Under the pieces are notes generated by a model. It saw only the letters and a program-made list of their open reading frames with translations, made no database searches and was not told the DNA's origin. From the IMG/VR virus record IMGVR_UViG_3300009128_000001: a stretch of DNA of 64,000 bases; one strand, 5' to 3'. Shown one piece after another: positions 8,863 to 45,925 of this stretch (positions are counted from its first letter, which is position 1; each line of letters starts with the position of its first letter). Source of the DNA: an uncultured virus (IMG/VR IMGVR_UViG_3300009128_000001) (lineage: Duplodnaviria; Heunggongvirae; Uroviricota; Caudoviricetes). Position numbers and translations under genes: made by a program.

Positions 8863-9705
8863 TTAAGTATAAGAATATCTTTTAACTCCCGGAGTATTGG
8901 CAACAGCTTTATACCATTCCGGATGTTTAGATATATCATCCATTTTGGCCTTCTCAACTTTTCCATCTGGATGTATAACCTCGACATTACTATCTATTGG
9001 TCTAATCCATGAAGCATATTCCCAATGATCCCTGGGGCTATGTCCTGTAACCACACTTCCCTCTAAAGGATTTTTATCTTTACCTTGCCAACCGCCAAGG
9101 CCCAGCTTATCAGGATTTCTGGGAGCAAGTATATCTTTTCCATGCCCAGCAACCAATCCTTTTTTTCCTTCAGTTAATTTGTTGGTCTTTTCGTTATAAT
9201 CAAGGCCCGCAGTATTTCTATTAATATGTGAAGCAACAACTTTATCTGGCGGAATGTATCTACCTTCAGGTGTCGTATAACCGCTCGAACTTAAGGGAGT
9301 TGCTCTAATTCGATTTTCCGGTTTAGTTGCCGCAAGAATTTGTCCTGACTGTTTCCATGACGGCAAGTTCAGCTTAAAGCGATCGACAATTTTTTGTGCT
9401 GTTTGTCCGGACACAGAAATTCTAACACCATCTATCATAAGGTAATCAGGCAACACTTTATATCTAAATTTCATTCCATTTGGCCCTTGGACAGTTATTG
9501 GAACCATATTTTTACGTATGCTATCGTATGTATACCGCTTGAATATTTCCGCCAAAATTAATTTTTCGCGTTCTGGTCCATGTCCAACCGCCAATAATTT
9601 CTCTTTAAAGCTAATTTTTTTAGGGCCAAGTTCCTGTTCAACCAGCTTAGTTAATGTTCCGGCGGCTATTTTTTTGAGTGCCATTTTTCTAAAATTTTTA
9701 TTCAT
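8863..9705 (-). CDS. conserved uncharacterised protein with ALKKIAA leader
   Basis: PDYL, TAQKI, LVAGHGKD, GWQ, H..EY motifs recall a bacterial hypothetical family; ATG 9705 has a GAGG RBS. Confidence 0.55.
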   Translation of the reverse strand: MNKNFRKMALKKIAAGTLTKLVEQELGPKKISFKEKLLAVGHGPEREKLILAEIFKRYTYDSIRKNMVPITVQGPNGMKFRYKVLPDYLMIDGVRISVSGQTAQKIVDRFKLNLPSWKQSGQILAATKPENRIRATPLSSSGYTTPEGRYIPPDKVVASHINRNTAGLDYNEKTNKLTEGKKGLVAGHGKDILAPRNPDKLGLGGWQGKDKNPLEGSVVTGHSPRDHWEYASWIRPIDSNVEVIHPDGKVEKAKMDDISKHPEWYKAVANTPGVKRYSYT

Positions 9706-9840: not shown

Positions 9841-11319
9841 ATGGCAGTAAAAGTAAATAAAGCGCCGCTACTAGCTGATGGAAAATATGATGTTCAAGAA
9901 GTCAAGGAGTTGAATTTCTTTGATTTATCGGGGCAGAAGGCAAAAACCAAAGGAACGAGCAATAAAAGCTACCATATAGAGCTGCAAACGGCGAAGAGTG
10001 GTGATAAAGCTCAGTTGTACAGTATGTGGGGTCCTACTGGGGGACAACAGCGTGAAGACTGGAGATATTACGATTCAGAATTTGCTGCTCGTAAAGATTT
10101 TGAAAAGATCATCAAGTCCAAAAAGAAAAAGGGCTATGTTGAGGTTGATGTGGCCCAACGCGCGTATGGTTCTAAGGAAGCCAAACAAATAACCAAATCG
10201 GTCATACTAACAAACGCACAGCAGGTCGATCCAAAAGCACCTGTATGTAAGTTGCAGCCTAAGGTACAGGAGTTAGTATCTAAATTATTTGGTAGCACAA
10301 ATGACTTCGTTATTACCACGCTAAAATGTCCGTTGGGCCAATTAACCAACAACCAAATTGATAAGGGGAGGGATGTTTTACAAGAGGCCGAAAAGCTAGT
10401 AAAACAGAAACGAAAAAACAAATCTAAGCTGGAAGATTTGACCAACCAATTTTATGCGGCCATTCCTCATAATCTTGGGTGCGGATCTCGCGGACAAATG
10501 ACGCATCTAATCTTGGACGATCCTATGAAGATTGCTCAAAAAGACGCTGATTTGGATACACTATTAGATGCCAAACAGGTAGGCGCAGTTCTAACCTCAG
10601 ACAATATTACAGATCAATATAATAGTTTAAATTCAGAAATTGAATATTTAGATCCAAAAAGCTATGATTTCCAATGGATAGACGCCATGATTCAAGGAAC
10701 TAGGGCGAGTAATCATCATTGGCTTGGAAAAATCAGGCTACAAAATGTTTGGACAATGAGCAGAAAGGGCGAATCTGATTTATTTTTCAAGAATGCGGAA
10801 AAAATTGCTGGCGCCTGTGGAAAACAACCATTGCCTTCAAAGCTTGCTAAATACGTCAAGGAGCGCCCGAAGATGCCCAAGGGTCATGGCACCCTATTTA
10901 CCAAAGCAAACGTTCTACCGCTCTGTCATGGCACTAGAACGGCCAATTTAATCGGTATCACCAGGAATGGCTTTCTAATTAGGCCATCGGGGGCAGTTTT
11001 AACAGGAGCAATGTACGGAAATGCGGTATATTTCGGCATGTTTTCAAAGGCTGCGAATTATGCCAGTGTAAGATCTTCATATTGGGCTCAGGGAAATGAT
11101 GATACAGGGTTTGTATTTTTATCTGATGTAGCGCTAGGCAAACAAAAAGTCGCGGGGTATTCTGGGAGATATACGTTAAATAATATTAAGCCATGTCACA
11201 GCGTTTGGGCCAAGGGAGGTCACAGTGGCGTAATTAATGACGAGTTTATGGTATACAATCCTGCGGGCAAAAATCAACAACATAAAATCAATTATTTGCT
11301 GGAGTTTAAATGTGGTTAA
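9841..11319 (+). CDS. poly(ADP-ribose) polymerase-like protein (WGR + regulatory + catalytic domains)
   Basis: WGR-like N-terminus (NKSYHIEL, WGPTG, FEK...K.KKGY), regulatory domain (PLGQLT..QI.KG, LTNQFY..IPH), catalytic H-Y-E (HGT, GAMYGNAVYF, KAANY, NDEFMVY). Confidence 0.9.
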   Translation: MAVKVNKAPLLADGKYDVQEVKELNFFDLSGQKAKTKGTSNKSYHIELQTAKSGDKAQLYSMWGPTGGQQREDWRYYDSEFAARKDFEKIIKSKKKKGYVEVDVAQRAYGSKEAKQITKSVILTNAQQVDPKAPVCKLQPKVQELVSKLFGSTNDFVITTLKCPLGQLTNNQIDKGRDVLQEAEKLVKQKRKNKSKLEDLTNQFYAAIPHNLGCGSRGQMTHLILDDPMKIAQKDADLDTLLDAKQVGAVLTSDNITDQYNSLNSEIEYLDPKSYDFQWIDAMIQGTRASNHHWLGKIRLQNVWTMSRKGESDLFFKNAEKIAGACGKQPLPSKLAKYVKERPKMPKGHGTLFTKANVLPLCHGTRTANLIGITRNGFLIRPSGAVLTGAMYGNAVYFGMFSKAANYASVRSSYWAQGNDDTGFVFLSDVALGKQKVAGYSGRYTLNNIKPCHSVWAKGGHSGVINDEFMVYNPAGKNQQHKINYLLEFKCG

Positions 11320-11320
11320 T

Positions 11321-11716
11321 ATGAGATTTTCGCCTCAAGAAAAAGAGCTAATATATTCAGCCCTAAAGCAGAGGCATAATAAAATCCAAAAATTATATTA
11401 CCAATTAGATTTCTCATTTTATGAACACAACTTAAAGCGCCAATTGGTATTAATTATGAATCAACTAGATAAACTGTCTAATTTTATTGGCGCGAATGAC
11501 ATTGTCGAATTAGAAGGATTATCCAATGATGAAGTAGCATTAATAAAAATGGCGCTCCAATCTAAAATAGAGCATTTAAGGATAAGGTATATAAAGTTTT
11601 CGGCCAAACATTCTGTAGAAAAATACGTCAGAAATAACCTGGATGAACTAATAGGGAGATACATAGAATTACAGAAAGATATAATGTTTGCTACATCGGA
11701 TCATCATGTTTTTTAA
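11321..11716 (+). CDS. hypothetical helical protein with internal duplication
   Basis: ELIYSALKQR..KI / ALIKMALQSKIEHL repeat; ATG 11321 directly follows PARP stop. Confidence 0.55.
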   Translation: MRFSPQEKELIYSALKQRHNKIQKLYYQLDFSFYEHNLKRQLVLIMNQLDKLSNFIGANDIVELEGLSNDEVALIKMALQSKIEHLRIRYIKFSAKHSVEKYVRNNLDELIGRYIELQKDIMFATSDHHVF

Positions 11717-12002: not shown

Positions 12003-12758
12003 TTATTTATCACCGTTTTTCACACGTTTTAACCATTCTTTTGCCGGCATACACCCCTTTTTAGAATTGCAAGATGTACAAGAGGGTCTGAAGTTAGATA
12101 AGCAATGTGGACCTCCTAGATATAATGGTTTTAGATGATCTATACAATCAAAAGGGCCACCACAATAAGCGCATCTATTTTGAAAAACAGAAAGCCTATC
12201 TTTTAACTGAGATGATGTGAATTTATATATTGTTGCGCGATTTTTTCTTGCCCTACGTCGGTGGGCCATCTCTAAAACTTTTGCAGGATTATTCTTTTTC
12301 CATCTTGCAGCACTTTTGTGGGCATTTTCTTTATTATTTTTGTAATATTTTTTTATAGCTTCTGTCCTTTTATTTTTATTATTTTTTAACCATTTCTTTT
12401 TTATGTTATTAGATTTTTCTCTATTTTCTTCTGCCCACTTTTTGTTTCCATCTAATATTTTTTTTCTATTCGGTTTATATCTTATATCTGAATAACATTT
12501 TCTACATAAACTTTGGTAACCATCTTTTCGCTGAGAGTTTTTACTGAAATTTTCAATTTTTAATTCTTTTTTACAGTGTTTACATGTTTTGGTTTTTATA
12601 TCCGGCTTCGTAGCGTTTTTCAATTTTTCATGAGATTTTTTGGCTCCTATTTTTCTACAACTCTTGCATTGAGAAGTTAATCCGTCAGGCTTGCTTCTCT
12701 GAATATGAAATTCCGTCTTTTCTTTTTCGAGCCCACACTTAGAACATTTCTTTAGCAT
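12003..12758 (-). CDS. HNH homing endonuclease with tandem Zn-ribbon repeats
   Basis: Two KxCxxC...F...DG....CxxC repeats; CAYCG...IDHLKPL..GGPH..SN..PSC..CN..K; antisense to neighbours. Confidence 0.85.
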   Translation of the reverse strand: MLKKCSKCGLEKEKTEFHIQRSKPDGLTSQCKSCRKIGAKKSHEKLKNATKPDIKTKTCKHCKKELKIENFSKNSQRKDGYQSLCRKCYSDIRYKPNRKKILDGNKKWAEENREKSNNIKKKWLKNNKNKRTEAIKKYYKNNKENAHKSAARWKKNNPAKVLEMAHRRRARKNRATIYKFTSSQLKDRLSVFQNRCAYCGGPFDCIDHLKPLYLGGPHCLSNFRPSCTSCNSKKGCMPAKEWLKRVKNGDK

Positions 12759-12841
12759 AATAATCACCCTGTTTATATGATGATTTATTGCCTGTTCTTG
12801 ATGTAAATTTTCGCAACTTACTAAAAAATAAGGATAAAATA

Positions 12842-13948
12842 ATGTTATTGCAAACTGGCCTCTCATATGACGACGTCCTCTTAGTCCCTCAAAGAAGCAA
12901 TATACCCAGCAGATCTGATATTGATTTATCGGTATATCTCGGCAAAGGCATACAATTAGATGTTCCTATCGTCTCGGCCAATATGAAAAATGTAACTGGT
13001 TCTGAAATGGCTAAAAAGATTGCAAAAATGGGCGGTTTGGGATTATTACATAGATTTTGCTCTGTCGAAGAGCAAGTAGACATGTTTAAAGATGCTGCCG
13101 GTAATTATAATACTCTTGGGTGTTCTATTGGTGTACAGGATAAGGATTTTGATCGAGCCGCAGCGCTAATTGAACATGGTTGTGAGATTATTTGTATTGA
13201 CGTTGCACATGGTCATAGCGAGTTATGTTTGAAAATGACGAGCACATTACGCGATTATATAGAGCACCAAAAACTTAATGTTCTTATTATAGCCGGAAAT
13301 GTCGCAACAGCTAGAGGGGCTGAAGATTTATATCAAGCCGGCGCAGATGTAATTAAAGTTGGAATTGGCAGCGGTTCATTATGTAGTACCAGATTAGAAG
13401 CCGGAGCTGGGGTTCCTCAATTAACAGCTCTGGAGAATTGTTTTCATGCAAGCTTGGCAACCAAAATGTATGAAAGTAATGTAAAAATTGAGAGCAACAC
13501 CCATGCTGGCGGTGTAGTGAATCTCGGACCACATGAGATATGGGATTGGGATGCGCCTAGAAAATTCAAGATTATAGCTGATGGTGGAATTAGGCGCGCT
13601 GGAGATTGTGTAAAGGCATTAGCATTTGCTGACGCTGTAATGCTAGGAAATGTTTTAGCCGGCACAGATGAGGCTCCAGGAAATATTATTACAATCAATG
13701 GTATAAAATATAAAGAGTATGAAGGATCTAGCACACATAAGAGCAAGCATGTCGAAGGTGTCAAAGGGATGGTTCCTCTAAAAGGACCGGTTAATTTGGT
13801 GGTAGAAAAATTATTAGAGGGAATTCGCTCTGGATGTTCATATCAAGGCGCGGAAGATCTGGAAGAATTAAAAGAATGTGCGGAATTTATACAGATTAGC
13901 GGGGCAGGATTAGCAGAGAGTCACCCGCATGATATATATTTAAAGTGA
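12842..13948 (+). CDS. IMP dehydrogenase / GMP reductase family protein (no CBS domains)
   Basis: LSYDDVLLVP, SANM, IDVAHGH, GIGSGSLCSTR, IIADGGI, EG..G.V; YEGSS instead of YRGMGS leans to GMP reductase. Confidence 0.9.
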   Translation: MLLQTGLSYDDVLLVPQRSNIPSRSDIDLSVYLGKGIQLDVPIVSANMKNVTGSEMAKKIAKMGGLGLLHRFCSVEEQVDMFKDAAGNYNTLGCSIGVQDKDFDRAAALIEHGCEIICIDVAHGHSELCLKMTSTLRDYIEHQKLNVLIIAGNVATARGAEDLYQAGADVIKVGIGSGSLCSTRLEAGAGVPQLTALENCFHASLATKMYESNVKIESNTHAGGVVNLGPHEIWDWDAPRKFKIIADGGIRRAGDCVKALAFADAVMLGNVLAGTDEAPGNIITINGIKYKEYEGSSTHKSKHVEGVKGMVPLKGPVNLVVEKLLEGIRSGCSYQGAEDLEELKECAEFIQISGAGLAESHPHDIYLK

Positions 13949-15021: not shown

Positions 15022-15596
15022 AGCAACAAGTTGGAATGATAGCTATATCTTATCTCGGGAGAGTAATAGGATATGACCGCAATATGTTATTTTTTAATCA
15101 TCATGCTTATTGGGATAGATTTAGCGAAGTAACAGATGATTCAATATTGATCATGGGAAACAGAACATTCAATCTCATTCCAAAAAAAATATTGCACAAA
15201 AAACCAAAACACGTATTAAGCCGTCATGCGCAAGGTTATTATCCAGACACTCAATGGTTTGGAGATTTTAATGATGCATTATTAGCTTGTCCGGTAGATG
15301 CTAAAATTTGGATTGTTGGCGGTTTAGAAATATTTAATCTTGCATTGCCGCTAAGGATTCCAGATTTCGTCGATCTTACAATAGTAGAGCGCACATATAT
15401 TCCGCCCATGCAAGATCCGCCAATTACTATTAAGCAAAAAGTGGAAAGATTGGATGCTATACCGCTAGACTATTCAATAGATTTTGAATATGAGAATCCA
15501 GAAGACGAAACATTACTTCATAGAAGATATTTTTTAAGAAAGAAAAAAGGGACAAAATCGTTTATTAATGAATTGCGCGAAAAAGTGAGTGGCTAA
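15012..15596 (+). CDS. dihydrofolate reductase-like protein (divergent)
   Basis: RVIG, LIMGNRTF, VLSR, IWIVGG.EIF, LTIV. Confidence 0.7.
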   Translation: MFIEQQVGMIAISYLGRVIGYDRNMLFFNHHAYWDRFSEVTDDSILIMGNRTFNLIPKKILHKKPKHVLSRHAQGYYPDTQWFGDFNDALLACPVDAKIWIVGGLEIFNLALPLRIPDFVDLTIVERTYIPPMQDPPITIKQKVERLDAIPLDYSIDFEYENPEDETLLHRRYFLRKKKGTKSFINELREKVSG

Positions 15597-15624
15597 TATT
15601 TTCGCATATATATGGTGTAGTAAT

Positions 15625-16137
15625 ATGAGAACAGTAATAATATTAAGAGGCGTACCAGGCTCCGGAAAATCTACATTTGGCCGGAACCTAATCGAAGAGG
15701 CTAAAAAGCAACAACTGAACACAAAAACAGTAAGTGCCGATCACTTTTTTAATGAATTTGGTGAGGATGGCGGAGAATATAGGTTTGATCGTTCTAAGCT
15801 AGGGACGGCTCATGCCAAATGTTTTCGAAACTTTATAGATGGAATGCAAAAAGGCTCTGATTTAATTGTGGTAGATAATACCAATACGTCCAGCATAGAA
15901 ATAGCCCCTTACAGACAAGGGGCTCATGCGTATGGGTATGACGTAGTAATTAAAACAGTTATGGCAGATCCTGAGGTTGCTTTTGAGCGAGGTTTGCATG
16001 GAGTGCCTATATCCGCAATCAAAAGAATGCACGAAACACTTCATAGAAATCTGCCGCCATATTGGGAAAAGCAGGAGGTATACAGATCGGCAACAACAAC
16101 ATCTGGAGAAGCTATTTTTGCATTAGAAGTAAATTAA
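15625..16137 (+). CDS. P-loop polynucleotide-kinase-like protein (AAA_33 / N4BP2-like)
   Basis: ILRGVPGSGKST, SADHFF, AH..C, VVDNTN, HGVP. Confidence 0.8.
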   Translation: MRTVIILRGVPGSGKSTFGRNLIEEAKKQQLNTKTVSADHFFNEFGEDGGEYRFDRSKLGTAHAKCFRNFIDGMQKGSDLIVVDNTNTSSIEIAPYRQGAHAYGYDVVIKTVMADPEVAFERGLHGVPISAIKRMHETLHRNLPPYWEKQEVYRSATTTSGEAIFALEVN

Positions 16138-16155: not shown

Positions 16156-16530
16156 ATGCCCCGAACACAGGACGCAGGCGCAGCACCTAAAGATAAACAG
16201 AGAGAGCAATTCCTAATCAAAGTAAAAACATTAGAATTAGCCAACCAAGTCCGAAAAGAAATCTTATTCGGAATTAAGCCAAGAATGTGGGTATACGTTA
16301 TTGCCACCCCTCGCGAAGAAGATTTTTATGATATTTTTGTGGCAAACGAACACGGCGGCTCTTTAGAAGACGAAAGAGTAAAAAGCGCCCAATTATTTAT
16401 AGAAAAATTCTTATCGGATAATGACCTTAATATAAAAGAAGAGCCCATTACCAAAAAGGGCTCTTCAGAAGCATCAGATCAGCCTGCTGAATCTGTTGAA
16501 GATTCCGCTAGTCTACAGAAACTGTCTTAA
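16156..16530 (+). CDS. hypothetical protein
   Basis: GAGG RBS, 124 aa. Confidence 0.6.
   Translation: MPRTQDAGAAPKDKQREQFLIKVKTLELANQVRKEILFGIKPRMWVYVIATPREEDFYDIFVANEHGGSLEDERVKSAQLFIEKFLSDNDLNIKEEPITKKGSSEASDQPAESVEDSASLQKLS
16431..16466 (-). terminator. possible intrinsic terminator for the M23-CCA gene
   Basis: Minus strand GAAGAGCCC-11 nt-GGGCTCTTC-TTTTATA about 40 nt past the 16508 stop; lies inside the opposite-strand CDS. Confidence 0.35.
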
Positions 16531-18856
16531 TAAAAGCGATAGCCGCTTCCTTAGTCATTTCAGGCTGTTTGTACATCTCTTCTTTTAGAGCGCGTACCAC
16601 CTGACCAACATGTTTGCCCTCAGTTAATCCTAGGATATTCATGATTTCTCGACCATCTATTGGTGCTTTTACATTCTTTTTGCCACCAGTCATTTTCAGA
16701 TAGTCATTAATCACATTTACAAATACATCATATTTTTTAAGTTCATCCGGATCTTTTTTGGATTTACCCATTGCATCACTCTTAGAGATTTCAATTAGAC
16801 TCGGCCAATCTTTTTCTCCTACTTTGTCCAATAATTTTCTAAGAGCCTCGGGCCTAGTATTGGCGGCATAATTGTGTAACCTCATATGATATCTTATAAG
16901 ATTAACAACACGCTCTCTAATTCTGTTTGGCGCTTTTAGGTCTTTTAATATTTCATCCGCCATTAGAGCCGAAGAATGATGATGGTCATGATATGTGCTA
17001 TGTCCCTTTTTGGGGTGTATTTGTTTTGATCTCGGATCTCCCTTTCCAATATCATGAAGTAACATAGCCAAATTTCTCACCAGCTCGTCATCTTCTTTTC
17101 TACCATTAGCCTCAGGATGATCCGACAATTCGTTTAAATACTTGAGTGACGCCAAGGTGTGTCCCCAAATATTCATATCATGGTATGGATTATTTTGATC
17201 CATCTCCCAAGAAGTAAATCCCTCTTCCCACTTTAATGGTTTACGAGACTTTCTTTTACTCTTTAGTTGTCTTTCTACCGCCCGATCAAGTTGATCCTTG
17301 GTTGGCTTTAGCAACAAATCTCTCAACCCTAATTTTTGTAATAATTCCGCCGCCTTGTGGAAGTTTGGGCCAATCATAAATCCGCGTTTCCAGCCATCTT
17401 TTTCTTCTTGCCCGGCCAGCTCTGTCCAAATTCTTTCTTTGGTAATTTTGTTTTCTAGCGCTTTTTGGACAATGGGATTTTTAGCGGCCTCAATAGCTGC
17501 CGGATCTAATTCAAGATCATATTTGGCGGCAAAACGAATAAGCCTCAAAATTCTTAAAGGATCATCTAGATAAGTTTGCAGAGGATCGATGGGAGTTCTG
17601 GCGCCTCTTTTTTTAATATCTTCAATGCCACCCACATAATCTTCAATTTGGCCGGTGTTGATATTATAAAACAAACTATTGATTGTCAGATCTCTTCGCT
17701 TAGCATCTTCTTCCGGCAAAACGCCTACTACAATTTTTGGATTTCTAGATTTGCTATCATAAACCTCGGTCCTTAATTGCGCAAAATCAATGTGAAAACC
17801 AAGAACAGGCAACATTGCGGATTCCATATGCTTATTTGCTTCAACATTAGCGTCCACAATAGTAACTTCATCGGCGGTTGTATATCCATTTTCTTTCATC
17901 CACTTTAACGCCAACTCAGCAAATTTCTTTCCGCTAATATTATCTGTCACAACATCAATATCATGAGATGGCCTGACCATTAATTTATCTCGAACCCAAC
18001 CGCCAGCCACTCTTAAATTAGTAGTAGGAGCTTTGTCCTCAACTACTTTTAATAATAGGTTAAAGACATCTTTCTCCTTATCTGTCAGTTTGAAATCCAT
18101 ATCTAATTCTGCGGCAATTTTTTTAATAGCAACAGCTCGATATTGTTTATTCAATTGCGATTTTGAGAATTTTTCAAAAATATTATACATTTTTTTAATA
18201 GATTCTGCGGCCTTAGATAATGAGCCTACCGGCCTTCCAATTATACTATGCGGATCTATATATTTACTAGCCCTAAACCTTCCGTTATCATCAAGCTTGC
18301 CTAGTGAGGTTTCCCAATGCAAATGATCACTGGTAGCATTCCCTGTCTGACCAACGGTACCAATTACTGTGGTGGGTCCAACTTCTTGACCTGGAGATAC
18401 ACTTACGGAATGCATATGGGCATAATACGAACCTACCCTGCCATTTTCATGAACTATTTTTACTGTTTTCCCGCCTTTAGAATATATTGGCGTACTAATA
18501 ACCACACCTGGGCCCATTGGATAAATTGGCGTGCCTTGTGGCGCATTTAAATCCATACCATTATGACCATGAGGATGTCCTTTGTTTATATATTTGCCAG
18601 GAATAAATGTGCCAACAATCCAAGGTTTTTGCCCCTCTTCTAATTCGGCATATTCCGCTGCATGTACTGGGCCTCCAATTCTTGTTATTTGGACGGGCCA
18701 TTGATATGTTCCCCCTTCAGTAGGAGTTGTGGGCTCTAGTGGTTCGCCCTCATCGTCTAATACGGCCGGACCAATATCAATAGATACAGGTTTATCCAAT
18801 AATTTGCTCATTGCGCCAGAGAACTCGCGCGAAAATTCATTGCTTCTTTTTTTCAT
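16508..18856 (-). CDS. cca: M23 peptidase fused to class II CCA-adding tRNA nucleotidyltransferase with HD domain
   Basis: M23: HNGMDL, YYAHM, HLHWE; CCA: VAGGWVRD, DIDV, RTEVY, EEDAKRRDLTINSLFYN, DDPLRILR; HD: H...LLHDIGK...H...D. Confidence 0.9.
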   Translation of the reverse strand: MKKRSNEFSREFSGAMSKLLDKPVSIDIGPAVLDDEGEPLEPTTPTEGGTYQWPVQITRIGGPVHAAEYAELEEGQKPWIVGTFIPGKYINKGHPHGHNGMDLNAPQGTPIYPMGPGVVISTPIYSKGGKTVKIVHENGRVGSYYAHMHSVSVSPGQEVGPTTVIGTVGQTGNATSDHLHWETSLGKLDDNGRFRASKYIDPHSIIGRPVGSLSKAAESIKKMYNIFEKFSKSQLNKQYRAVAIKKIAAELDMDFKLTDKEKDVFNLLLKVVEDKAPTTNLRVAGGWVRDKLMVRPSHDIDVVTDNISGKKFAELALKWMKENGYTTADEVTIVDANVEANKHMESAMLPVLGFHIDFAQLRTEVYDSKSRNPKIVVGVLPEEDAKRRDLTINSLFYNINTGQIEDYVGGIEDIKKRGARTPIDPLQTYLDDPLRILRLIRFAAKYDLELDPAAIEAAKNPIVQKALENKITKERIWTELAGQEEKDGWKRGFMIGPNFHKAAELLQKLGLRDLLLKPTKDQLDRAVERQLKSKRKSRKPLKWEEGFTSWEMDQNNPYHDMNIWGHTLASLKYLNELSDHPEANGRKEDDELVRNLAMLLHDIGKGDPRSKQIHPKKGHSTYHDHHHSSALMADEILKDLKAPNRIRERVVNLIRYHMRLHNYAANTRPEALRKLLDKVGEKDWPSLIEISKSDAMGKSKKDPDELKKYDVFVNVINDYLKMTGGKKNVKAPIDGREIMNILGLTEGKHVGQVVRALKEEMYKQPEMTKEAAIAFIKTVSVD

Positions 18857-18980: not shown

Positions 18981-19208
18981 ATGGAAAAACAAAAACAATA
19001 TTATACTGTAAAAGTTGAAGCTACCGCACCCATTGAACTAACTTATCGAGTATGGGCAGAAGATCCAGAAGAGGCTCTGGAAATATTCGAAACATCCTCT
19101 TTTTATTCTCCTCCCAGACCAATTTTGTCGAGGATGAGAAAGATCAAGGCAACGGTTTATCGGTCTGGAACCACAATTATAGAGACGATCAAAAACTTTA
19201 GAGGTTAA
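18981..19208 (+). CDS. hypothetical protein
   Basis: 75-aa ORF; WAEDPEEALE pattern common in small phage proteins. Confidence 0.6.
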   Translation: MEKQKQYYTVKVEATAPIELTYRVWAEDPEEALEIFETSSFYSPPRPILSRMRKIKATVYRSGTTIIETIKNFRG

Positions 19209-19655: not shown

Positions 19656-20234
19656 ATGGAATATTATATTATCGATACAGAAACTACCGGACTAAAAGCC
19701 GGCCATCATGAAATTACGGATATTTCAATTGTTAGATGTACAGATCGTGCACAACTAACCAAAAAAATCAAAATAGATCACCCAGACCGGGTTTCTATGC
19801 AAGCCCTTGAAGTTACTGGGAGAAATTACGAAGACATTCTAGGCGGTGAAGACAAGTTTGAGGTAGTAGAAAGGTGTGAAGAATTTTGGCGCGAGGACGG
19901 ATTAACCCCAGAACACAGATGTATGGTAGCTCATAACGCCCCGTTTGACAAGCGATTTTGCCATGCATTATGGGAAGATGTTGGTAAGGAATTTCCGGTA
20001 GTATGTTGGATGGATACTATTAAATTCGCGAAAACGTGGGCTAAAGAAATTGGAGTATACCAAAAAAGCTTTAAATTAGAGCTTGCATTAAAGTTTGCCG
20101 GAATAAGTGAATTACCTGGGGCACATACAGCTGCCGGGGATGCTAGAAATACTTATTTATTATGGAAGAAAGGTATGGATAACGGTGTAGATCACTTGCC
20201 AGCAATTCAAAGATATCCGCATATAATCAAATGA
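19656..20234 (+). CDS. DEDDh 3'-5' exonuclease (DnaQ-like)
   Basis: IDTETTGL, VAHNAPFD, AHTAAGD. Confidence 0.9.
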   Translation: MEYYIIDTETTGLKAGHHEITDISIVRCTDRAQLTKKIKIDHPDRVSMQALEVTGRNYEDILGGEDKFEVVERCEEFWREDGLTPEHRCMVAHNAPFDKRFCHALWEDVGKEFPVVCWMDTIKFAKTWAKEIGVYQKSFKLELALKFAGISELPGAHTAAGDARNTYLLWKKGMDNGVDHLPAIQRYPHIIK

Positions 20235-21618: not shown

Positions 21619-22503
21619 ATGATTGTACAATTGGAGAAAACAGCAGATCATATTTCAGATTGGATCAAAGAATACGCAGATAATGCCGGAATCAAATCAT
21701 TAATTGTGGGATTATCGGGTGGTATTGATTCAGCGTTAGTGGCCTTATTATGTAAACAAACACTTATTCCAACAATTTGTGTCGGTTTGCCATGTGATTC
21801 ATCATCTGTAGCTAGTAATGCAGATGCTTTTGCTAAAGATTTTGGATTAAAATACCTAAAAATAGATTTAGAAAATACATTTGCTACTCTTATGGGAAGA
21901 ATTATTGACGTCACAAAAAATGAGCCCCATAAAATACAGAACAATTTATTTGAAAAAGTATCCGCCGGAACACTCAGATCTTGCTTAAGAACTCCGGTGT
22001 TATCATATCTAGCTCATCTTTACAAGGGCATTATAGTTGGCACAGGAAATCGCTGTGAGGACAATTTAGTTAGATATTACAATAAATTTGGCGATGGCTG
22101 TGTTGATATATCGCCCATCGGAGATTTATATAAAAGCGAAGTATATGAATTGTTTGAGTTTTTAGCCGCAGACGAAGATTATAATATTCCTGACAGCGCT
22201 AAAGCTATTATCGACACCGCTCCAACGGCTGATTTGTGGGGGCCAGATGCAAACCAAACAGACGAAGAAGAGATGGGCTTGACATACGATGAAATAGAAT
22301 GGGCTGATAGGGAAGACGAAATATACGGAATTATTAAAAGCAATATTGAGCCAACAAAAGATCCTGAATGGTTAAGATATACAGGAAGGCAAAGGCAAAT
22401 AATAGCGCTTATACACCAAATGGAAAAAATAACCAGACATAAACACAACCCAGCGCTTCCTGTATGTATGATTGATGGAAGGGCGGGATTAGTAAGACGA
22501 TAA
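21619..22503 (+). CDS. nadE: NH3-dependent NAD+ synthetase
   Basis: VGLSGGIDSA, GTGN..E, KFGDG..DI.PIGDLYKSEV, PTADLW...QTDEEEMG.TY, HK. Confidence 0.92.
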   Translation: MIVQLEKTADHISDWIKEYADNAGIKSLIVGLSGGIDSALVALLCKQTLIPTICVGLPCDSSSVASNADAFAKDFGLKYLKIDLENTFATLMGRIIDVTKNEPHKIQNNLFEKVSAGTLRSCLRTPVLSYLAHLYKGIIVGTGNRCEDNLVRYYNKFGDGCVDISPIGDLYKSEVYELFEFLAADEDYNIPDSAKAIIDTAPTADLWGPDANQTDEEEMGLTYDEIEWADREDEIYGIIKSNIEPTKDPEWLRYTGRQRQIIALIHQMEKITRHKHNPALPVCMIDGRAGLVRR

Positions 22504-23135: not shown

Positions 23136-23636
23136 ATGCAACAACCAAATTTTTTTGCGGGACATTTAAGGTACAAAACCGGAGATGCCACCATTCCATT
23201 TTCAGCTGGACACAGGATAATCATTCAAGTATGTAATGATGTAGGCGCATATGGAGCTGGTTTTAGTGGGGCTGTAGCTAAGAGATGGCCAAAAGTAGAG
23301 GAAGAATATCGCAGATGGTGTAGGTCACAACACAAATTTGTACTTGGAGAGATTCAGGTAATTAATGTACAATCTGATACTACAATAGTCAATATGATCG
23401 CACAACAAGGAATAAAAAAAGCTAAAACCAAAAAAGATCTTATGGATTATGCTGCGCTTGAAAAATGTTTAAACCAAATAATCCCGATTGCTAAAGACAA
23501 CGGCAGCAGTGTACATGGGCCAAGAATTGGTGCTGGGCTCTGCGGCTCTGATTGGAAAAAGATCGAGCCCGTAATAAACGACACACTAATAAAAAGCGGT
23601 ATAAATGTAACAATATACGATTTACCAAATGAATGA
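23136..23636 (+). CDS. macrodomain ADP-ribosylhydrolase (SCO6735/TARG1-like class)
   Basis: GDAT, VCND.G..G.GF..AV..RWP, VNMIAQ.G, SVH.PRIGAGL.G..W, V.IYD. Confidence 0.88.
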   Translation: MQQPNFFAGHLRYKTGDATIPFSAGHRIIIQVCNDVGAYGAGFSGAVAKRWPKVEEEYRRWCRSQHKFVLGEIQVINVQSDTTIVNMIAQQGIKKAKTKKDLMDYAALEKCLNQIIPIAKDNGSSVHGPRIGAGLCGSDWKKIEPVINDTLIKSGINVTIYDLPNE

Positions 23637-26272: not shown

Positions 26273-27091
26273 CTAATCCTTTTTATTTATCTTAATTAAT
26301 TTAGCCGCCGCGAGTAATTTTTTTAATAAACTCCAATGCGATGGTAACTTACACTCTTCTTTTTTTAACGCTAATTCTTGTATCCTATTTTCCACCCATT
26401 CTATATCAAACCCTAGAGGATCTGGCTTTCTTCTGGTGATGTTATAATGTGATAAAAGCCCCTTATAATGTTCCGGATTGCTAATTGTTGTTTTAATGAT
26501 ATTGCCATTATTATCTCTTGGAAATTTCGGATCTATATCGGGGAACAATTGTGTAAACCCCCACAACAGTCTGGCACAAGCTTCATGTTGAGCTTTTGTT
26601 GGTGCAAACACCTTGCTAAAAGCATATCCGTGCACCTTATCAGATACTATATCATGAGGTTGTACTCCAAATTTATCTTGATAATATTTTGAATATAAAT
26701 TGCTATTTTCCCATGCCTCTGGATGATAACTAATCTCTACACCTGGTCCCTCTTCATTTAATGGCACATGAGACCAGCACCCCTCTTTAATGTCAGCGCA
26801 TTGATAAATAGTTGCAATGCCATCATCATTAATATCATCATCAATCATAAAATTACAACTTAAACCGCGAGCATTTAAGCCACGGAACATACTATGCGCG
26901 GTATATGTAACAGAGTGATGTACCACAAAACAATTAATAATTTCTCGGAGATGATCTAGTGATATATCTCTTTTATAAAAACTGCCTTTGGGATAAAAAG
27001 AAAGCCCCTCTTCTTCATTCCATAACACAACGCGGCAGCCTATATCAAACCCTTTACCAGATGCAATTATTTTGGTGTTTTTATCAGTCAT
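26273..27091 (-). CDS. N-acetylmuramoyl-L-alanine amidase (Amidase_2), endolysin candidate
   Basis: VVHHS, SCNFMID, IYQ..D, WSH, GVEI, LSHYNI...K.DP. Confidence 0.85.
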   Translation of the reverse strand: MTDKNTKIIASGKGFDIGCRVVLWNEEEGLSFYPKGSFYKRDISLDHLREIINCFVVHHSVTYTAHSMFRGLNARGLSCNFMIDDDINDDGIATIYQCADIKEGCWSHVPLNEEGPGVEISYHPEAWENSNLYSKYYQDKFGVQPHDIVSDKVHGYAFSKVFAPTKAQHEACARLLWGFTQLFPDIDPKFPRDNNGNIIKTTISNPEHYKGLLSHYNITRRKPDPLGFDIEWVENRIQELALKKEECKLPSHWSLLKKLLAAAKLIKINKKD

Positions 27092-27705: not shown

Positions 27706-28458
27706 CTAATCTTTTTTAGCGGCAAATAAACCAATAATAAACGTCCATATCGTCATGAAAATTTTGACGATTAGGTTCATTTTCTCTTCATTAGGATCTT
27801 TCTTTGGATCTTTTTCTTCCGGAATTAAATCAGTTACATCATGCTCCGGCTCATCTATATCTGGCGGCGATTCATATGGATCTTCGGCCGGCTGTTCTGG
27901 CGGCTCAAACTCTAATAATAAGTCAGATTTCTTCATGAATTCATTATATAAACCCACAACTACGGCCGTATAGCTCTGTAATGGCGCTGTAAAATAACCG
28001 CCTTGTTTTAATTCGAATACATATTTCCGCACATTACCATTAACTAATTCTTGCCATGCCCTTTTGTAATTTGAACGTGTGGCCAGAAAATTTAGATGGA
28101 ATTTAGCTCCCTCTAGTGCTGACTCATGCGCGGAAAATAAAGTTTGCGGATGATATGGATAGAAATAATAATGCTCGCCATTTATATATTCAGAGCAAAA
28201 ATAAGAAGTATAATGGACATTTTTGCGTTTTTTGACATTGCCCCAGTTATAATTCCTCAACTGTTTCCATCTACCAGTTTCTAAAGCTGATTGAGCCCAA
28301 AGGATTCCCAAACTTTCAAGAGAAGGATAATCACCATATAACTCTTTCCAAGCTTCTCTCAAATAGTACGTAGCCTCTGCCTCTTTTAGCGGAGTTTTTT
28401 TACAATGAATGAATAAAGAATCGTCAGGCGGCGTATTATATTTTGGATCTAGTTTCAT
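27706..28458 (-). CDS. glucosaminidase/muramidase-like (GH73/FlgJ-like) protein with amphipathic tail
   Basis: AQSALETG, NYNWGNVK, LKQGGYFTA...Y; acidic Pro linker then IFMTIWTFIIGLF. Confidence 0.7.
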   Translation of the reverse strand: MKLDPKYNTPPDDSLFIHCKKTPLKEAEATYYLREAWKELYGDYPSLESLGILWAQSALETGRWKQLRNYNWGNVKKRKNVHYTSYFCSEYINGEHYYFYPYHPQTLFSAHESALEGAKFHLNFLATRSNYKRAWQELVNGNVRKYVFELKQGGYFTAPLQSYTAVVVGLYNEFMKKSDLLLEFEPPEQPAEDPYESPPDIDEPEHDVTDLIPEEKDPKKDPNEEKMNLIVKIFMTIWTFIIGLFAAKKD

Positions 28459-28472
28459 ACATATATGGCAAA

Positions 28473-28817
28473 TTATAAACCAAATATATATAGATCGCCC
28501 CAATCGAGATTCACGAGGGGATATGTTTGTCCTGGGGGCCCGAATTTATTTTCCTCAATTTTGACGAGCCCATGAGAATAAAAGCATACTACATCAGCAT
28601 ACTCTCGATTTTGCAGCTCTTCAAATGATCGAACAACCATCAATCGCATGTCTAAGATCTTTAAATCACGGACATAATTAGGATCTGCGGCAATGCGATC
28701 ATCAAATACATATCCATCAATTACGGAATTAATATGAAGTTGACGCACAAACATATCTTGTACATTTGCTGTCAAGTCATTATTAACAAAAATTACTGCT
28801 GCGGGGCGTACAACCAT
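28473..28817 (-). CDS. hypothetical protein
   Basis: ATG 28817 abuts upstream stop. Confidence 0.6.
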   Translation of the reverse strand: MVVRPAAVIFVNNDLTANVQDMFVRQLHINSVIDGYVFDDRIAADPNYVRDLKILDMRLMVVRSFEELQNREYADVVCFYSHGLVKIEENKFGPPGQTYPLVNLDWGDLYIFGL

Positions 28818-34107: not shown

Positions 34108-34761
34108 GTGTCAAGCTTATTATTAACAATACTAATTCTATTAAATATAACCTTATTGCCTATCGGTGTATATTTATTAAAGAGAATCGAAGAGCGGGTT
34201 GGGTACAAGGCCATCTCCAAGCACCCGCTGCCGCCCATAATTATTAGGAAAATTTATATTGATCGTGCGTTTACAACAAAAGAACGCACTATTATAAAAA
34301 CAGCCCTGTCTCAGTGGGAAAAGATAACCAACGGATTAGTTCGTTTGCGCATTATAGACTCTTCCGCAATATCTCTGTCGGAAGGATACCATTGTCGTGA
34401 ACAACATTCATATGATGAATATTGCAGCCGCATTTATCTTTCTAAAGCCCTTTCCTCCGACGACAAAATACAAGAAATTGATGCATACGAAAAAACAAAT
34501 ATTTGGGGCTATGCCTATATGACATATGTGCCAAGAATAGCGATTATAGTTACTGATAGAATCCCTAACGAACAACAATTACAAAAAATAATCATTCACG
34601 AAATAGGACATCTCCTAGGAATTCCTCATGGCTCACAGCACCACTCGCTTATGCACCAATATTGTTCTGCAAGTAAAAAGCAACAAATTACAGAAGAAGA
34701 TTTGCGATACATAATTCGCACCGCATTGAGAGATGTTGAACTACAATACAGACGCCACTGA
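34108..34761 (+). CDS. matrixin/M10-like zinc metalloprotease, N-terminal TM
   Basis: HEIGHLLGIPH plus SLM Met-turn. Confidence 0.8.
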   Translation: MSSLLLTILILLNITLLPIGVYLLKRIEERVGYKAISKHPLPPIIIRKIYIDRAFTTKERTIIKTALSQWEKITNGLVRLRIIDSSAISLSEGYHCREQHSYDEYCSRIYLSKALSSDDKIQEIDAYEKTNIWGYAYMTYVPRIAIIVTDRIPNEQQLQKIIIHEIGHLLGIPHGSQHHSLMHQYCSASKKQQITEEDLRYIIRTALRDVELQYRRH

Positions 34762-35167: not shown

Positions 35168-37501
35168 TTAAATTTTTTCGCCGGGCGTCCACTTTACTCC
35201 GCTTACAGACACAGTAAGTACATCAATATCAGTATTATCAACCCCATCATCGTCTAATTCTAATCTCCACAATATAAGATCGTCTTCATAGTAATCGTCA
35301 ATACTAAATGGTCCAAAAGTCAACATCCCTACTTTAGTATTAGCCACCAGTCCGATGGAGCCTGTCGTAACTGTATCTGTCTGGGCTGCATTTGTCGTTA
35401 ACGTATCTGTATTAGCATACGTTCTGGCGGTTGGCGTTGTCCCTCCCGTTGGATCGGCCACTTCAACTGCCACCACCTCAACTGGCAACAAACTGCCAAT
35501 AAGAGTTACTGTGTTTGAGCCAACAAGTGTGCGCCTAAGAGTCACTTTAAAATATAGCGGAAATTGCGTTGCTACTCCTTGAGGTAAATTAAATTGATAC
35601 TGAATTGCATCACCATTAGTGTTAAGCCTCGAATTCTTGATAGTATGTGTCCAGCCAGAAGGCGCTCCTCCCGATCCAACAGAAAAAGATCCGTCACCAA
35701 CGCCACCGCCACCTTCTTCACCAAAAACATTTCCAGTAGCCTGTAATGTTTCAGACCATTGTGCCAACCCATGATATGTAGATAGCCCTGTTGAGCCCAC
35801 ATCATTATGACTGAATGCCATCTTCCACTGTTCAAATACTGGAGCAGTAGTTGAGCTGGTAGTAATTCGCACACGCAACCAATATGCCATTGTCCCATTA
35901 ATTGACTTGGTAGCCCACGTTGTATTTTCATCTAAATTTAGCCTGATATATTCTTCACTATTGGCGCGGAGGAATGGGTTGCTACCGTACTCATAATGCT
36001 CATCATCATCCGTAACCATCATCTCTACTGTTTGCCACGATACACCAGACCACACCTCAAATATATACACGCCATCTGCCGCACTAGCGGTAGTCTGTTT
36101 AATTTTATGGCCCCAATACTTAACATAACCATCAGTATTGGTTACGGTGCTCCCAATTAAGATTGAATAGCCGGCAGTTTTACCCTGGAATGTAAATGTA
36201 GATCCAGAGCTACTAGATGCAGCAGCTGTTTCATCTACAAAATTATCACCATCGTCTCCAACCGCCGCCGTATCATCTGTTGTCAGCACCACCATTCCAT
36301 GAGTTGTTGAGGGCCCTTGTCCAAACGCACAGCTTCTCGCAAACTCGGGTGATCCTACCCTAAGCTTACTCCAGCAAAACATACCCTCATTACCACTCTC
36401 TGCGTTTCCAAATAACATAAGAAAAGGAACATTATCCATGTACGTACCTGGGATGTCCATTTTTGATCGATCCATATCTACGCCCATGATATTCATTAAG
36501 CCAGATGTGGTGGCACTATCTACTGCCAAACAATAAGAGGTAGATTCGATTCTTCCAGAATTTACAATAAGTTCATGGCCATCTCCCTCAACATAGATGC
36601 CAATGTCGCCCGATAAAAACACAGCCCTGCCAATTTGTGCTTTTGCGGCCTCCACCACCAGGCATTCGTTAATAACGCATCCTTGCTGGACGCCCATGGT
36701 TTCTGCAATTAATGTTCCCCCACTAGCAATGTCCCACCCATAGTCCAAAGTTCCAGACCAAATATAAGTCATAACTGCCGTCATTTTTCCGCCAGTTACC
36801 TGGAAAGCGGCATCAGCAGTTCCGCTATTATAAAAACAATTGCGAAGAAATAAGTCACCATTTTGACATCTTATACCAACACCAGAGCCCCCTTGGCCCT
36901 CCAATCTGATATTATAACAAAGAGCCTCATCACTAGAACCGCTAGGACCATTAATAGCATAGGCGGCATCAGTTGGCAGCTCAACTGTTAGATCTTGTAC
37001 GGTTGAGCCATTGCTTAGCGCAATACGAGTTCCAGTCGCTGCTGCGCCATCTATTATTGTTCGGAACCCACCCCCTTGTAGTTTAACGCCCGCTGGAACA
37101 GTTACAGATTCACTATAAGTTCCAGGACCTACACGCACTATATCTCCAGAACTAGCTGCTGCCAAAGCCGCTGTTATTGTGGAATATGTTGACACCGATG
37201 AATCAGTAATTAACGAAATACCAGAACCTCCGGCCTCACTAAGCAATGCCACATCCTGAGCCGAACCATCAACATATAAGCTTATACGACCACTAGATGT
37301 ATTCATACCCAAATCGCCAGCTTGCAATGCCGCCTGAGTTCCATCCCATCGAAACAAATCAAGACCATCTGGGGCGCCCTCAATTGTATTGCTGCCAATC
37401 TGTACATTTTTAAAAGCACCACAAACCAAACATCTTTTAGTTCTCTGCCAAGGCCAAGTCCAAAGGTGCTTCCCTAATTTTTCGCATAAAGTTTTTTTCA
37501 T
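35168..37501 (-). CDS. tail-spike/fibre-like protein: Cys/His N-terminal module plus beta-helix-like domain
   Basis: YSTITAALAAA.SGD.V.VGPGTY.ESV pectin-lyase-fold cap; N-terminal module shared with three paralogues. Confidence 0.65.
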   Translation of the reverse strand: MKKTLCEKLGKHLWTWPWQRTKRCLVCGAFKNVQIGSNTIEGAPDGLDLFRWDGTQAALQAGDLGMNTSSGRISLYVDGSAQDVALLSEAGGSGISLITDSSVSTYSTITAALAAASSGDIVRVGPGTYSESVTVPAGVKLQGGGFRTIIDGAAATGTRIALSNGSTVQDLTVELPTDAAYAINGPSGSSDEALCYNIRLEGQGGSGVGIRCQNGDLFLRNCFYNSGTADAAFQVTGGKMTAVMTYIWSGTLDYGWDIASGGTLIAETMGVQQGCVINECLVVEAAKAQIGRAVFLSGDIGIYVEGDGHELIVNSGRIESTSYCLAVDSATTSGLMNIMGVDMDRSKMDIPGTYMDNVPFLMLFGNAESGNEGMFCWSKLRVGSPEFARSCAFGQGPSTTHGMVVLTTDDTAAVGDDGDNFVDETAAASSSSGSTFTFQGKTAGYSILIGSTVTNTDGYVKYWGHKIKQTTASAADGVYIFEVWSGVSWQTVEMMVTDDDEHYEYGSNPFLRANSEEYIRLNLDENTTWATKSINGTMAYWLRVRITTSSTTAPVFEQWKMAFSHNDVGSTGLSTYHGLAQWSETLQATGNVFGEEGGGGVGDGSFSVGSGGAPSGWTHTIKNSRLNTNGDAIQYQFNLPQGVATQFPLYFKVTLRRTLVGSNTVTLIGSLLPVEVVAVEVADPTGGTTPTARTYANTDTLTTNAAQTDTVTTGSIGLVANTKVGMLTFGPFSIDDYYEDDLILWRLELDDDGVDNTDIDVLTVSVSGVKWTPGEKI

Positions 37502-45109: not shown

Positions 45110-45925
45110 TTATAATGTTTTCATTGGCCACCAAGCAAGGGTCGCTCGCGATCCATCCTGGAAAAAATCAGTAATATCTGTAACTAAAGCGATAGATGTA
45201 ACATTTGCCCCGATGGCCGAGTGCGCTATCCTCATGTAAGAATGTTGTGTAGAAGAATAAGTTACAGCATCGCCCCAATGCATTACCCCTGCCCTAGTAT
45301 TTGCCATTATATATGTGTTATCTCTACCAGGCCAAATCCATGTTTGAAACCACCCCTCGTGCGGATTCACAAAATCACCATTATCTCCATGAAGTATAGC
45401 GGTTCTACTTCCAGAATAAATATTTTCAGATGCCGCACCTAAAGTTTCTTCAATTACGTAATAATTATTACCAGGATCTGGTCCATTTCCATTTATATCA
45501 AGGTACATTAAATACTCTGTTGTTGGGGCGTCCATTAGGCCAATATACATACAGGTAAGGCAGTAAGCTCCATCGCCATCGCCATCAAGATCAATAAACC
45601 TTATTTCATTTGCGGGGCTCCCAACAACCCTAATCGTTTCAATTTGTGTTAAAGACTCATCTATATGTATCAAATCACGACTGGTCCCCCCTCTAAACAT
45701 TTGGGGCCTTCCATTTGACACGTCCATTCCCAAATCACCAGCCTGTAACGCATTTTGTGATCCAGACCATCTAAGCACATCATGTCCAAGCACAGGAGTC
45801 GATTCAATAGTATTTTCACCAGCCTGCAAGCTTTGAAATGCACCACATACAATACACCTTTTACTTTGTTGCCACGGCCACAACCAAGTATGCTTTCCTC
45901 TTTTTTTGCATAGAGATTTCTTCAT
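45110..45925 (-). CDS. putative fibre-tip/receptor-binding protein, paralogue 1
   Basis: CKKRGKH.W.WPWQ..KRC.VCGA module; HEGWFQTWIW; ends WWPMK. Confidence 0.6.
   Translation of the reverse strand: MKKSLCKKRGKHTWLWPWQQSKRCIVCGAFQSLQAGENTIESTPVLGHDVLRWSGSQNALQAGDLGMDVSNGRPQMFRGGTSRDLIHIDESLTQIETIRVVGSPANEIRFIDLDGDGDGAYCLTCMYIGLMDAPTTEYLMYLDINGNGPDPGNNYYVIEETLGAASENIYSGSRTAILHGDNGDFVNPHEGWFQTWIWPGRDNTYIMANTRAGVMHWGDAVTYSSTQHSYMRIAHSAIGANVTSIALVTDITDFFQDGSRATLAWWPMKTL

Follow-up and report, generated by a model that had tools for sequence, protein, structure and literature searches.

A 782-residue open reading frame (ORF) in the uncultured virus record IMGVR_UViG_3300009128_000001, of which a stretch of 64,000 nucleotides (the window) was analysed, joins an M23-type wall hydrolase to a class II CCA-type tRNA nucleotidyltransferase followed by an HD domain. 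This fusion is a gene made by joining two neighbouring genes. It recurs in homologues, in some of which the M23 hydrolase is replaced at the same position by unrelated wall hydrolases, and we tentatively favour the reading that it opens the cell wall as part of the virion and brings with it an enzyme for tRNA 3'-end repair. The window belongs to an uncultured marine huge phage: the runs containing this sequence are marine metagenomes, the database record of the protein gives a 176-kb contig, and PARP, a Macro domain, NAD synthase, IMPDH and DHFR among the genes of the window point to a huge phage.

An earlier note on this DNA had described a single 782-residue ORF with intact M23, CCA-type head and HD domains, and this description is borne out by Pfam matches and invariant catalytic residues. 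The frame opens with an ATG codon and runs over 782 codons with no internal stop. Peptidase_M23 (PF01551) covers residues 97-184 (E 1.7e-22, 79.8 bits for a cut-off of 28.7), the PolyA_pol head residues 281-417 (E 2.3e-26, 93.1 bits for a cut-off of 23), and HD (PF01966) residues 564-678 (E 1.1e-10, 42.2 bits for a cut-off of 22), while the HDIG profile stays below its cut-off (22.7 vs 27.6). M23 enzymes carry the motifs HxxxD and HxH, and class II heads the motifs GGxxRD, DxD, RRD and [ED]DxxR. The metal-binding and catalytic residues of the M23 domain, H98, D102, H147, H178 and H180 (HxxxD and HxH with an extra His), are invariant in 17 aligned subfamily members, that of the window included. 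In an alignment of 22 sequences, the same holds for the head motifs G285 G286 R289 D290, D299 D301, R387 R388 D389 and D432 P433 L434 R435, and for H566, H601, D602, H625, H657, H661 and D694 of the HD domain.

Residues 282-742 match phrog_2244, a phage tRNA nucleotidyltransferase (E 6.8e-46), and the solved chains closest to this part are the tRNA nucleotidyltransferases cca1/cca2 and a "polynucleotide adenylyltransferase family protein". The NCBIfam equivalogs are all below their cut-offs (tRNA_CCA_actino, the best, 175.5 vs 438.8; PcnB 88.5 vs 305.65; A-adding 39.3 vs 1440), so a CCA-adding activity is the most likely reading, with addition of A only or of longer tails as alternatives. The nearest named relatives of the M23 part are ShyA, ShyC, MepM and LytM, again below the NCBIfam equivalog cut-offs, and the domain is predicted to be a peptidoglycan endopeptidase. 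Its PHROG matches are tape-measure, minor head, large "endolysin" and peptidase profiles, and M23 is also present in the solved phage chains "Internal protein" and "Gp16". In the AlphaFold model of the fusion, with a mean predicted local distance difference test score (pLDDT) of 83.3, both enzymes are confident, and the pLDDT falls below 50 at residues 1-7, 18-47 and 231-252. No hydrophobic signal peptide was seen by eye at the N-terminus. The canonical endolysin plan, a catalytic and a wall-binding domain with a holin or spanin gene adjacent, does not describe this protein, the C-terminal part of which is the CCA/HD enzyme.

A search for homologues, proposed earlier as a check on the fusion, found it repeatedly. 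Among the 120 best homologues, M23 and PolyA_pol occur together in 15 other proteins (42-57% identity, from several sources), with HD in all but one. That a wall hydrolase and a CCA enzyme belong together is further supported by replacements at the same position: CHAP stands in the M23 place in P0014, P0017 and P0018 (by Pfam) and P0015 (by alignment), and M15_4/VanY in P0042, P0046, P0063 and P0070; in all three families the hydrolase domain precedes the CCA head. The CCA parts of 76 proteins were placed in a tree by a quick method with Shimodaira-Hasegawa-like approximate likelihood ratio test (SH-aLRT) supports only; three of 79 candidates had been dropped, their GG.VRD box not being found by the motif rule. 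The tree requires at least 11 architecture changes, and the well-supported branches alone force at least 4 for M23, 2 for CHAP, 2 for M15 and 7 for "stand-alone". The CHAP forms are nested in M23 forms (P0014 and P0015 with P0005), and the stand-alone P0020 is sister to the fused P0010.

Two metagenome loci display the same parts as separate genes, in the order and on the strand found in the fusion. In L082, a 238-residue M23 gene overlaps a 503-residue CCA gene by 44 nucleotides in another frame, and in L130 a 233-residue M23 gene is followed by the CCA gene after 20 nucleotides. Immediately 3' of the L082 CCA gene, on the same strand, lies a 74-residue ORF (11262-11486) that looks Smr-like by eye. 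The hydrolase gene occupies a conserved slot, consisting of an RNase_T exonuclease, a small ORF and, divergently, the hydrolase gene, which is kept in the window, L001, L082, L130, L162 and L164; L001 is a CHAP-CCA fusion surrounded by IMPDH, DHFR and NAD synthase genes. A search of viral contigs for related loci with the single protein returned no relative, an alignment-based search succeeded, and a scan with an 8-row M23 alignment gave 3 loci. Because the parts also occur as split genes, and M23 by itself at this locus, the fusion is a union of neighbours and not an obligate polyprotein. Taken from the tree, the split loci, the slot synteny and the lone M23 genes, the history is that of a conserved hydrolase slot that gained a downstream CCA gene in one subclade, followed by repeated fusion and parting and by in-place replacement of the hydrolase by unrelated families.

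The hydrolase module belongs to a large set of small, leader-bearing, unannotated phage M23 proteins with no export signal. Residues 1-235 gave 60,958 matches at E <= 0.001 among 1.84 billion representatives, 19 of them at E <= 1e-30, and the best matches are mostly small proteins of 190-300 residues. From the N- to the C-terminus, the subfamily displays an amphipathic peptide, a P/S/T/E-rich spacer, a YQxPV box, the M23 domain, a GSLSKKA box and a helical tail. The amphipathic peptide is of the type [VI]D-x-L-I-x-x-L-[IL]-G, an expression matched by 17 of 24 N-termini, and its profile, run over all six-frame ORFs collected, retrieved only M23 genes. The same module carries other C-terminal cargo in P0135, P0139, P0140 and P0159, with one to three HExxH-like modules each; these are unannotated and share a conserved WRKAVKEFYK-type end. 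Three further M23 proteins (P0137, P0150 and P0157) retain after the linker only the last ~60 residues of the CCA enzyme and look like fusions that have lost most of it. A small domain, marginal at a pairwise E of about 1e-3, is possibly shared by the C-terminal extension of P0125/P0129 and the region preceding M15 in P0042/P0070. Among 390 records of cultured phages, none covers at least 80% of the N-terminal part.

Under the favoured reading, the fusion protein would be made without secretion, built into the virion and ejected at infection. Its N-terminal hydrolase would cut peptidoglycan locally, and the CCA/HD part would enter the cytoplasm with the DNA and restore damaged tRNA 3' ends before phage gene expression; proteolytic separation at the linker would be possible and not required. 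In general, the hydrolase would gain access to peptidoglycan from the outer side if it is part of the virion, or else from the cytoplasmic side by way of holin lesions. T7 gp16 and the M23 domains embedded in tape-measure proteins belong to the virion-associated wall hydrolases and ejection proteins. The virion route is favoured because diverse C-terminal parts are attached to the hydrolase module, as to a carrier, because it has a conserved terminal peptide and a disordered spacer, because the window contains two other endolysin candidates (glucosaminidase and Amidase_2), and because phage M23 domains typically sit in virion or ejection proteins, as judged from PHROG, solved chains and cyanophage A4 gp28, described as a capsid-internal pre-ejectosome protein with transglycosylase and M23-like domains (PMC12002296). 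The recurrent fusion, the swapping of hydrolases, the split forms, the conserved slot, the lack of a signal peptide and the disorder of the linker were counted as further support.

Several observations weigh against placing the fusion in the virion. Endolysins also swap N-terminal catalytic modules. In the CCA tree, 51 of the 76 rows have no fused hydrolase, and wall hydrolases make up only 2 of the 27 upstream neighbours scanned. The near-complete genome G002 (435 kb, 100% by CheckV) harbors a lone M23 gene in the slot and a CCA gene 148 kb away, and the near-complete G001 (409 kb, 96% by CheckV) a lone M23 gene in the slot with CCA present only as a distant 248-residue head-domain match; the M23 and CCA functions thus do not need each other. 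The gene of the window lies among nucleotide-metabolism genes with no recognisable structural genes adjacent, and none of the 267 matching records of cultured phages covers at least 80% of the whole fusion. Finally, a short profile of low sensitivity did not detect the N-terminal M23 peptide on any further ORF of four related records, which argues against a general packaging signal.

The main alternative, to be taken seriously though on balance doubtful, is a cytoplasmic bifunctional protein, the CCA/HD part of which repairs or matures tRNA, while the hydrolase is idle until holin lesions form and then serves as an auxiliary endolysin; the fusion would then amount to mere co-expression. Canonical endolysins likewise wait in the cytoplasm until such lesions form, and the premise of the earlier note, that wall and tRNA activities need different destinations, is therefore not compelling. 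A cytoplasmic protein would fit the lack of an export signal, the swapping of M23, CHAP and M15 as in modular endolysins, the position of the gene outside any recognisable structural block and the existence of split and unlinked arrangements. However, the window already possesses a glucosaminidase with a hydrophobic tail and an Amidase_2 protein, and a conserved N-terminal peptide with a disordered spacer is not an endolysin feature. Counting in the same direction, we know of no endolysin fused to a large cytoplasmic enzyme.

It is improbable that the fusion is a neutral accident of the kind expected if huge phages often fuse neighbours, the hydrolase and CCA roles being unrelated and sharing no destination. 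Other CCA fusions of huge phages, with quite different partners, would agree with this (L018, L081, P0057), as would the other C-terminal partners of the M23 module. At L081 853-4554 (LR756501, a 735-kb uncultured phage), the CCA enzyme ends a 1233-residue ORF, the unrelated N-terminal parts of which are connected through recurring DPYGEE[DR]W stretches, a further type of repeated linker. The 2366-residue ORF at L018 6665-13765 has an N-terminal topoisomerase IB, CCA/HD in the middle and then a 2H phosphoesterase, and P0057 is a CCA enzyme with a helical extension of about 490 residues. Yet in the fusions considered here closely related CCA enzymes carry, at one and the same N-terminal position, wall hydrolases of three unrelated families, and the tree forces at least 8 changes among these, which argues for more than a single accident.

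The linker between the two enzymes is a flexible helical stretch derived from the tail of the hydrolase gene and an N-terminal extension of the CCA gene. In the AlphaFold model it forms two free helices of low confidence (residues 212-231 and 237-251), packed on neither domain. Of 20 CCA homologues tested, fused or stand-alone, 12 contain its core, R-x3-[LMF]-x-[KR]-[ILVM]-[AVS], as do 6 of the 7 leader-bearing proteins in the family of another ORF of the window, 280 residues long; the rule was written after both sets had been seen and is not an independent test. The core is located at the N-terminus of the stand-alone CCA enzymes P0023, L006, L084 and L102, at the C-terminus of the stand-alone M23 protein P0134, and twice in P0010, where it flanks an extra segment of about 230 residues. 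The computational checks proposed in the earlier note gave largely positive results: a separate contig spans the junction, the fusion recurs, and the linker core, in the form R-x3-[LM]-x-K-[IVL]-A, is found in 12 of the 20 homologues. Seven fusions do not have the motif (P0017, P0018, P0019, P0021, P0042, P0063 and P0070).

The earlier note had also proposed that the linker copies the N-terminal leader of the 280-residue ORF. The linker peptide and the N-terminus of that ORF (9655-9702) share 9 of 16 residues, with F/Y and I/L exchanges in addition, and across all six frames of the window the pattern NK.[FY]R..A[IL]KK is found in these two peptides and nowhere else. Self-matches aside, no other 16-mer among about 128,000 positions matches as well, the next ones having 8, 7 and 7 identities, and 9 identities were reached in 3 of 5000 shuffles of the fusion protein; with these counts the match is judged above chance and not overwhelming, that is, real but modest. 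The DNA over the motif is about 69% identical and uses different synonymous codons, which argues against a recent DNA copy. The window pair is the best of 78 cross-family linker/leader pairs, and P0003 with P0123, which both report a longest contig of 15,250 bp, is the joint best of its row, which hints at co-variation of linker and leader within genomes. Profiles gave a different picture. A profile of 11 CCA-side linkers placed the N-terminus of the 280-residue ORF third among 402 window ORFs (E = 2), a profile of five leaders did not return the linker among its top eight, the full 34-residue leader profile did not find it at E <= 20 in 20,176 ORFs, and the linker profile, run over all six-frame ORFs collected, retrieved only CCA homologues and its own training members. 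The identity of linker and leader as demonstrably the same element was dropped, cross-family profiles failing both ways; the likeness covers the first half of the leader only, for which the proposed copy stands, and does not extend to the full leader.

These motifs bear on the full model of the earlier note, a head-packaged polyprotein cut in the linker by the prohead protease to free the hydrolase and the CCA enzyme, which we consider distinctly improbable. The linker is flexible and conserved, the extra segment of P0010 is flanked on both sides by KKIA-type motifs, and the natural split forms (L082 and L130) break in the same stretch. Cleavage at K-x-A, as proposed, is without support, and we know of no precedent for this protease specificity. 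The KKIAAE of the linker fits A-x-E better than K-x-A, and of 13 CCA-side instances of the motif, 8 continue with [AS]-x-E, resembling the A-x-E at which the prohead protease gp245 of phage SPN3US cleaves ejection proteins (PMC10052503). Against this, none of 6 leaders of the 280-residue family has [AS]-x-E after the motif, and the acidic position is lost in P0002, P0003, P0012 and P0023 as well as in all leaders of that family. Seven fusions lack the motif, no prohead protease, portal or capsid gene is in view within the 64-kb window, and the split forms and the stand-alone M23 genes at the same locus also speak against a polyprotein. Since the fusion arose several times from neighbouring genes, cleavage is not needed.

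Highly improbable is a scheme in which the peptidase and amidase domains clean amino-acid or peptide adducts off tRNA 3' ends before repair by CCA/HD: its sole point is that each of the three families found in front of this tRNA 3'-end enzyme hydrolyses peptide or amide bonds, and it conflicts with the M23 residues and nearest solved relatives, which are those of peptidoglycan endopeptidases (ShyA, MepM-like, LytM), and with stand-alone M23 subfamily members in genomes without a close CCA gene. An assembly artefact joining two genes, or misassembly at the junction, can practically be dismissed, as it is contradicted by a Logan contig of run X1 (2090 bases, depth about 6), which spans 17600-18586 with no differing letter and bridges M23, linker and CCA head, and by at least 15 further contigs of several sources with the same architecture. 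The latter are the stronger evidence for a real junction. Run X1 is possibly the sample from which the sequence came, and from three further runs only fragments were obtained, none of them reaching across the linker.

The 280-residue ORF displays a modular leader helix and a core. Its family comprises 10 homologues (37-45% identity), and the ORF has no Pfam or PHROG match. The leader is present in 6 of the 10, and the other four start at the core and end in a spacer and a C-terminal helix. The model has a pLDDT of 83.8, with a leader helix of low confidence. VIA-align gave Z values of 6-7.7, the common range of the tool, between the core and C-type-lectin or formylglycine-enzyme-like folds such as CarF, TvpA and Mtd, and Foldseek against PDB and BFVD returned nothing at E <= 0.001. 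In the ESM Atlas, the protein matches phage clusters and, by structure, bacterial clusters, one of them with a type IX secretion tail. Fused forms of greater length did not turn up in this family, which is weak evidence. In the window, 6.8 kb separate the gene from the fusion, and in G001 about 5.6 kb separate it from the M23 gene; in both it is transcribed against its neighbours.

The best match of the leader profile outside the family (E 0.012) is the N-terminus of an unrelated ORF of G002, L164 18802-19746 (about 191.8 kb), which possesses a GWSAG box and a weak Peptidase_S9 match and is alpha/beta-hydrolase-like. By hhalign, the leader alone of this ORF aligns to the 280-residue family (E 0.0012). 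Its distance from the M23 gene of G002 is about 9 kb, and its strand is the one with 94 of the 695 retained G002 ORFs. As judged from these alignments, the leader is a modular N-terminal element shared by unrelated proteins. The CCA gene of G002 (L169 1222-3063) is stand-alone and encodes 613 residues; the C-terminal spacer of the enzyme is basic and rich in Gly and Pro, and the helix at its end resembles, by eye only, the C-terminal tails of the leaderless members of the 280-residue family.

A broader proposal combines these elements and is unlikely to hold in full. A clade of huge phages would inject CCA/HD tRNA repair on a virion wall hydrolase, reversing the acceptor-end damage inflicted by host tRNA-targeting defences before gene expression, and the short terminal helices of the hydrolase, the lectin-like 280-residue family and the alpha/beta-hydrolase would be a new, position-independent signal for loading into the particle.

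Table 1. Positions of the fusion, its parts and other features of the window
Feature	Positions	Strand	Remark
280-residue ORF, modular leader helix and core weakly like C-type-lectin / formylglycine-enzyme fold	8863..9705	-	
Leader of the 280-residue ORF, residues 1-34	9604..9705	-	first 16 residues resemble the fusion linker motif
AAA_33 / polynucleotide-kinase-like P-loop kinase near the fusion 3' end (RNA-repair context)	15589..16137	+	similar gene near the L164 M23 gene
Whole fusion ORF, 782 residues: N-terminal peptide, M23, helical linker, CCA-type nucleotidyltransferase, HD	16508..18856	-	
HD (HDIG-type) phosphohydrolase, residues 564-678	16823..17167	-	Pfam
Class II nucleotidyltransferase head (PolyA_pol), residues 281-417	17606..18016	-	Pfam
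Linker, residues 211-258	18083..18226	-	two low-confidence helices
Linker motif NKQYRAVAIKKIAAEL	18104..18151	-	
M23 metallopeptidase domain, residues about 50-210	18227..18709	-	Pfam core 97-184 = 18305-18568
N-terminal helix (residues 2-20) and disordered spacer, residues 1-47	18716..18856	-	
75-residue ORF, divergent from the fusion	18981..19208	+	kept in L082, L130; small ORF at same position in L162, L164
RNase_T-type exonuclease, conserved syntenic marker of the hydrolase slot	19656..20234	+	
Amidase_2-type wall hydrolase, second separate endolysin candidate	26273..27091	-	E 1.2e-5, just above Pfam cut-off
Glucosaminidase-type wall hydrolase, separate endolysin candidate	27706..28503	-	acidic spacer and C-terminal hydrophobic stretch (tail by eye)

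The neighbours of the fusion are DHFR, kinase, exonuclease, IMPDH and NAD synthase genes, as in L001, L162 and L164, and the fusion is on the strand opposite to these metabolic genes. No gene for a small membrane protein flanks it. Upstream of it, no obvious Shine-Dalgarno sequence was seen by eye, many neighbours having GAGG-type sites. The window has no tRNA genes; it also harbors HNH and endonuclease VII-like nucleases, two exonucleases and two further wall hydrolases. Glucosaminidase-type hydrolases with an acidic spacer and a hydrophobic C-terminal tail are also found in L093 (106-702) and L098 (530-1414), in both cases encoded immediately 5' of a stand-alone CCA gene, and those of the window, L093 and L098 are possibly membrane-tethered endolysins.

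Elsewhere in the window, a PARP of eukaryote type with WGR, regulatory and catalytic domains (9841-11319, +; a homologue exists in L096 and L097), a Macro domain protein (23136-23636, +) and NAD synthase (21619-22503, +) form an ADP-ribosylation / NAD module. An HNH / endonuclease VII-like gene (12003-12866, -) overlaps the TTG start listed for IMPDH (12788-13948, +), the Pfam match of which is in two stretches, and a homing endonuclease may have inserted beside or inside IMPDH. A matrixin (peptidase M10) homologue is found at 34108-34761 (+; E 2e-11). Three giant ORFs, all on the minus strand, are located at 37505-44968 (2487 residues), 47593-54846 (2417 residues) and 54891-63989 (more than 3032 residues); they have a G+C content of 0.43-0.47, vs about 0.37, and no Pfam or PHROG match. 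The first of them and the ORF at 35168-37501 (777 residues) matched nothing in 50,697 phage records, and the minus-strand block is not demonstrably structural. Between the giant ORFs lie three tandem ORFs of 268-273 residues (45110-45925, 45939-46760 and 46774-47580, -) that look like paralogues; similar sequence stands immediately upstream of two of them, this being the 3' end of the preceding ORF.

Taken singly, CCA-adding enzymes of phages and wall hydrolases of virions are familiar. The available text of a jumbo-phage survey notes phage CCA enzymes and does not mention "M23" (PMC7824862), and the available portions of the literature searched (supplements excluded) report no recurrent coupling of CCA enzymes to wall hydrolases, no in-place exchange among three families and no modular terminal helices of this type. 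If virion-borne, the fusion would be the first RNA-repair enzyme to be injected and would represent a novel, pre-emptive form of counter-defence, and as a defined candidate it would make the question of head cargo in huge phages testable. If it is not, it is still a clear recurrent gene fusion with non-orthologous domain replacement in huge phages. It would then also define a large unannotated subfamily of small M23 proteins with a leader and, as judged from the alignments, a modular N-terminal leader shared by unrelated proteins.

Among known systems, the phage class II CCA enzymes with HD (PHROG 2244) share with the fusion the head motifs, the HD pair and, in the window, a nearby polynucleotide-kinase-like gene; in contrast, the fusion carries an N-terminal wall hydrolase and stays below every NCBIfam equivalog cut-off. 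It resembles virion peptidoglycan hydrolases and ejection proteins such as A4 gp28 in having a signal-less wall hydrolase on a larger protein, whereas its partner is a soluble RNA-repair enzyme and not a structural or channel-forming one. With packaged anti-defence proteins (T4 internal proteins, P1 Dar proteins), it would share the concept of a head-carried enzyme that acts before gene expression, and its N-terminal peptide and linker could serve as targeting or cleavage elements in the manner of capsid-targeting propeptides; unlike these, it shows no signal shared with other ORFs of related genomes and no consistently kept cleavage motif. Modular endolysins, finally, also exchange their N-terminal catalytic domain among M23, CHAP and M15 and have no signal peptide, but in the fusion a C-terminal cytoplasmic enzyme of 520 residues replaces the wall-binding domain, and an N-terminal peptide and spacer precede the hydrolase.

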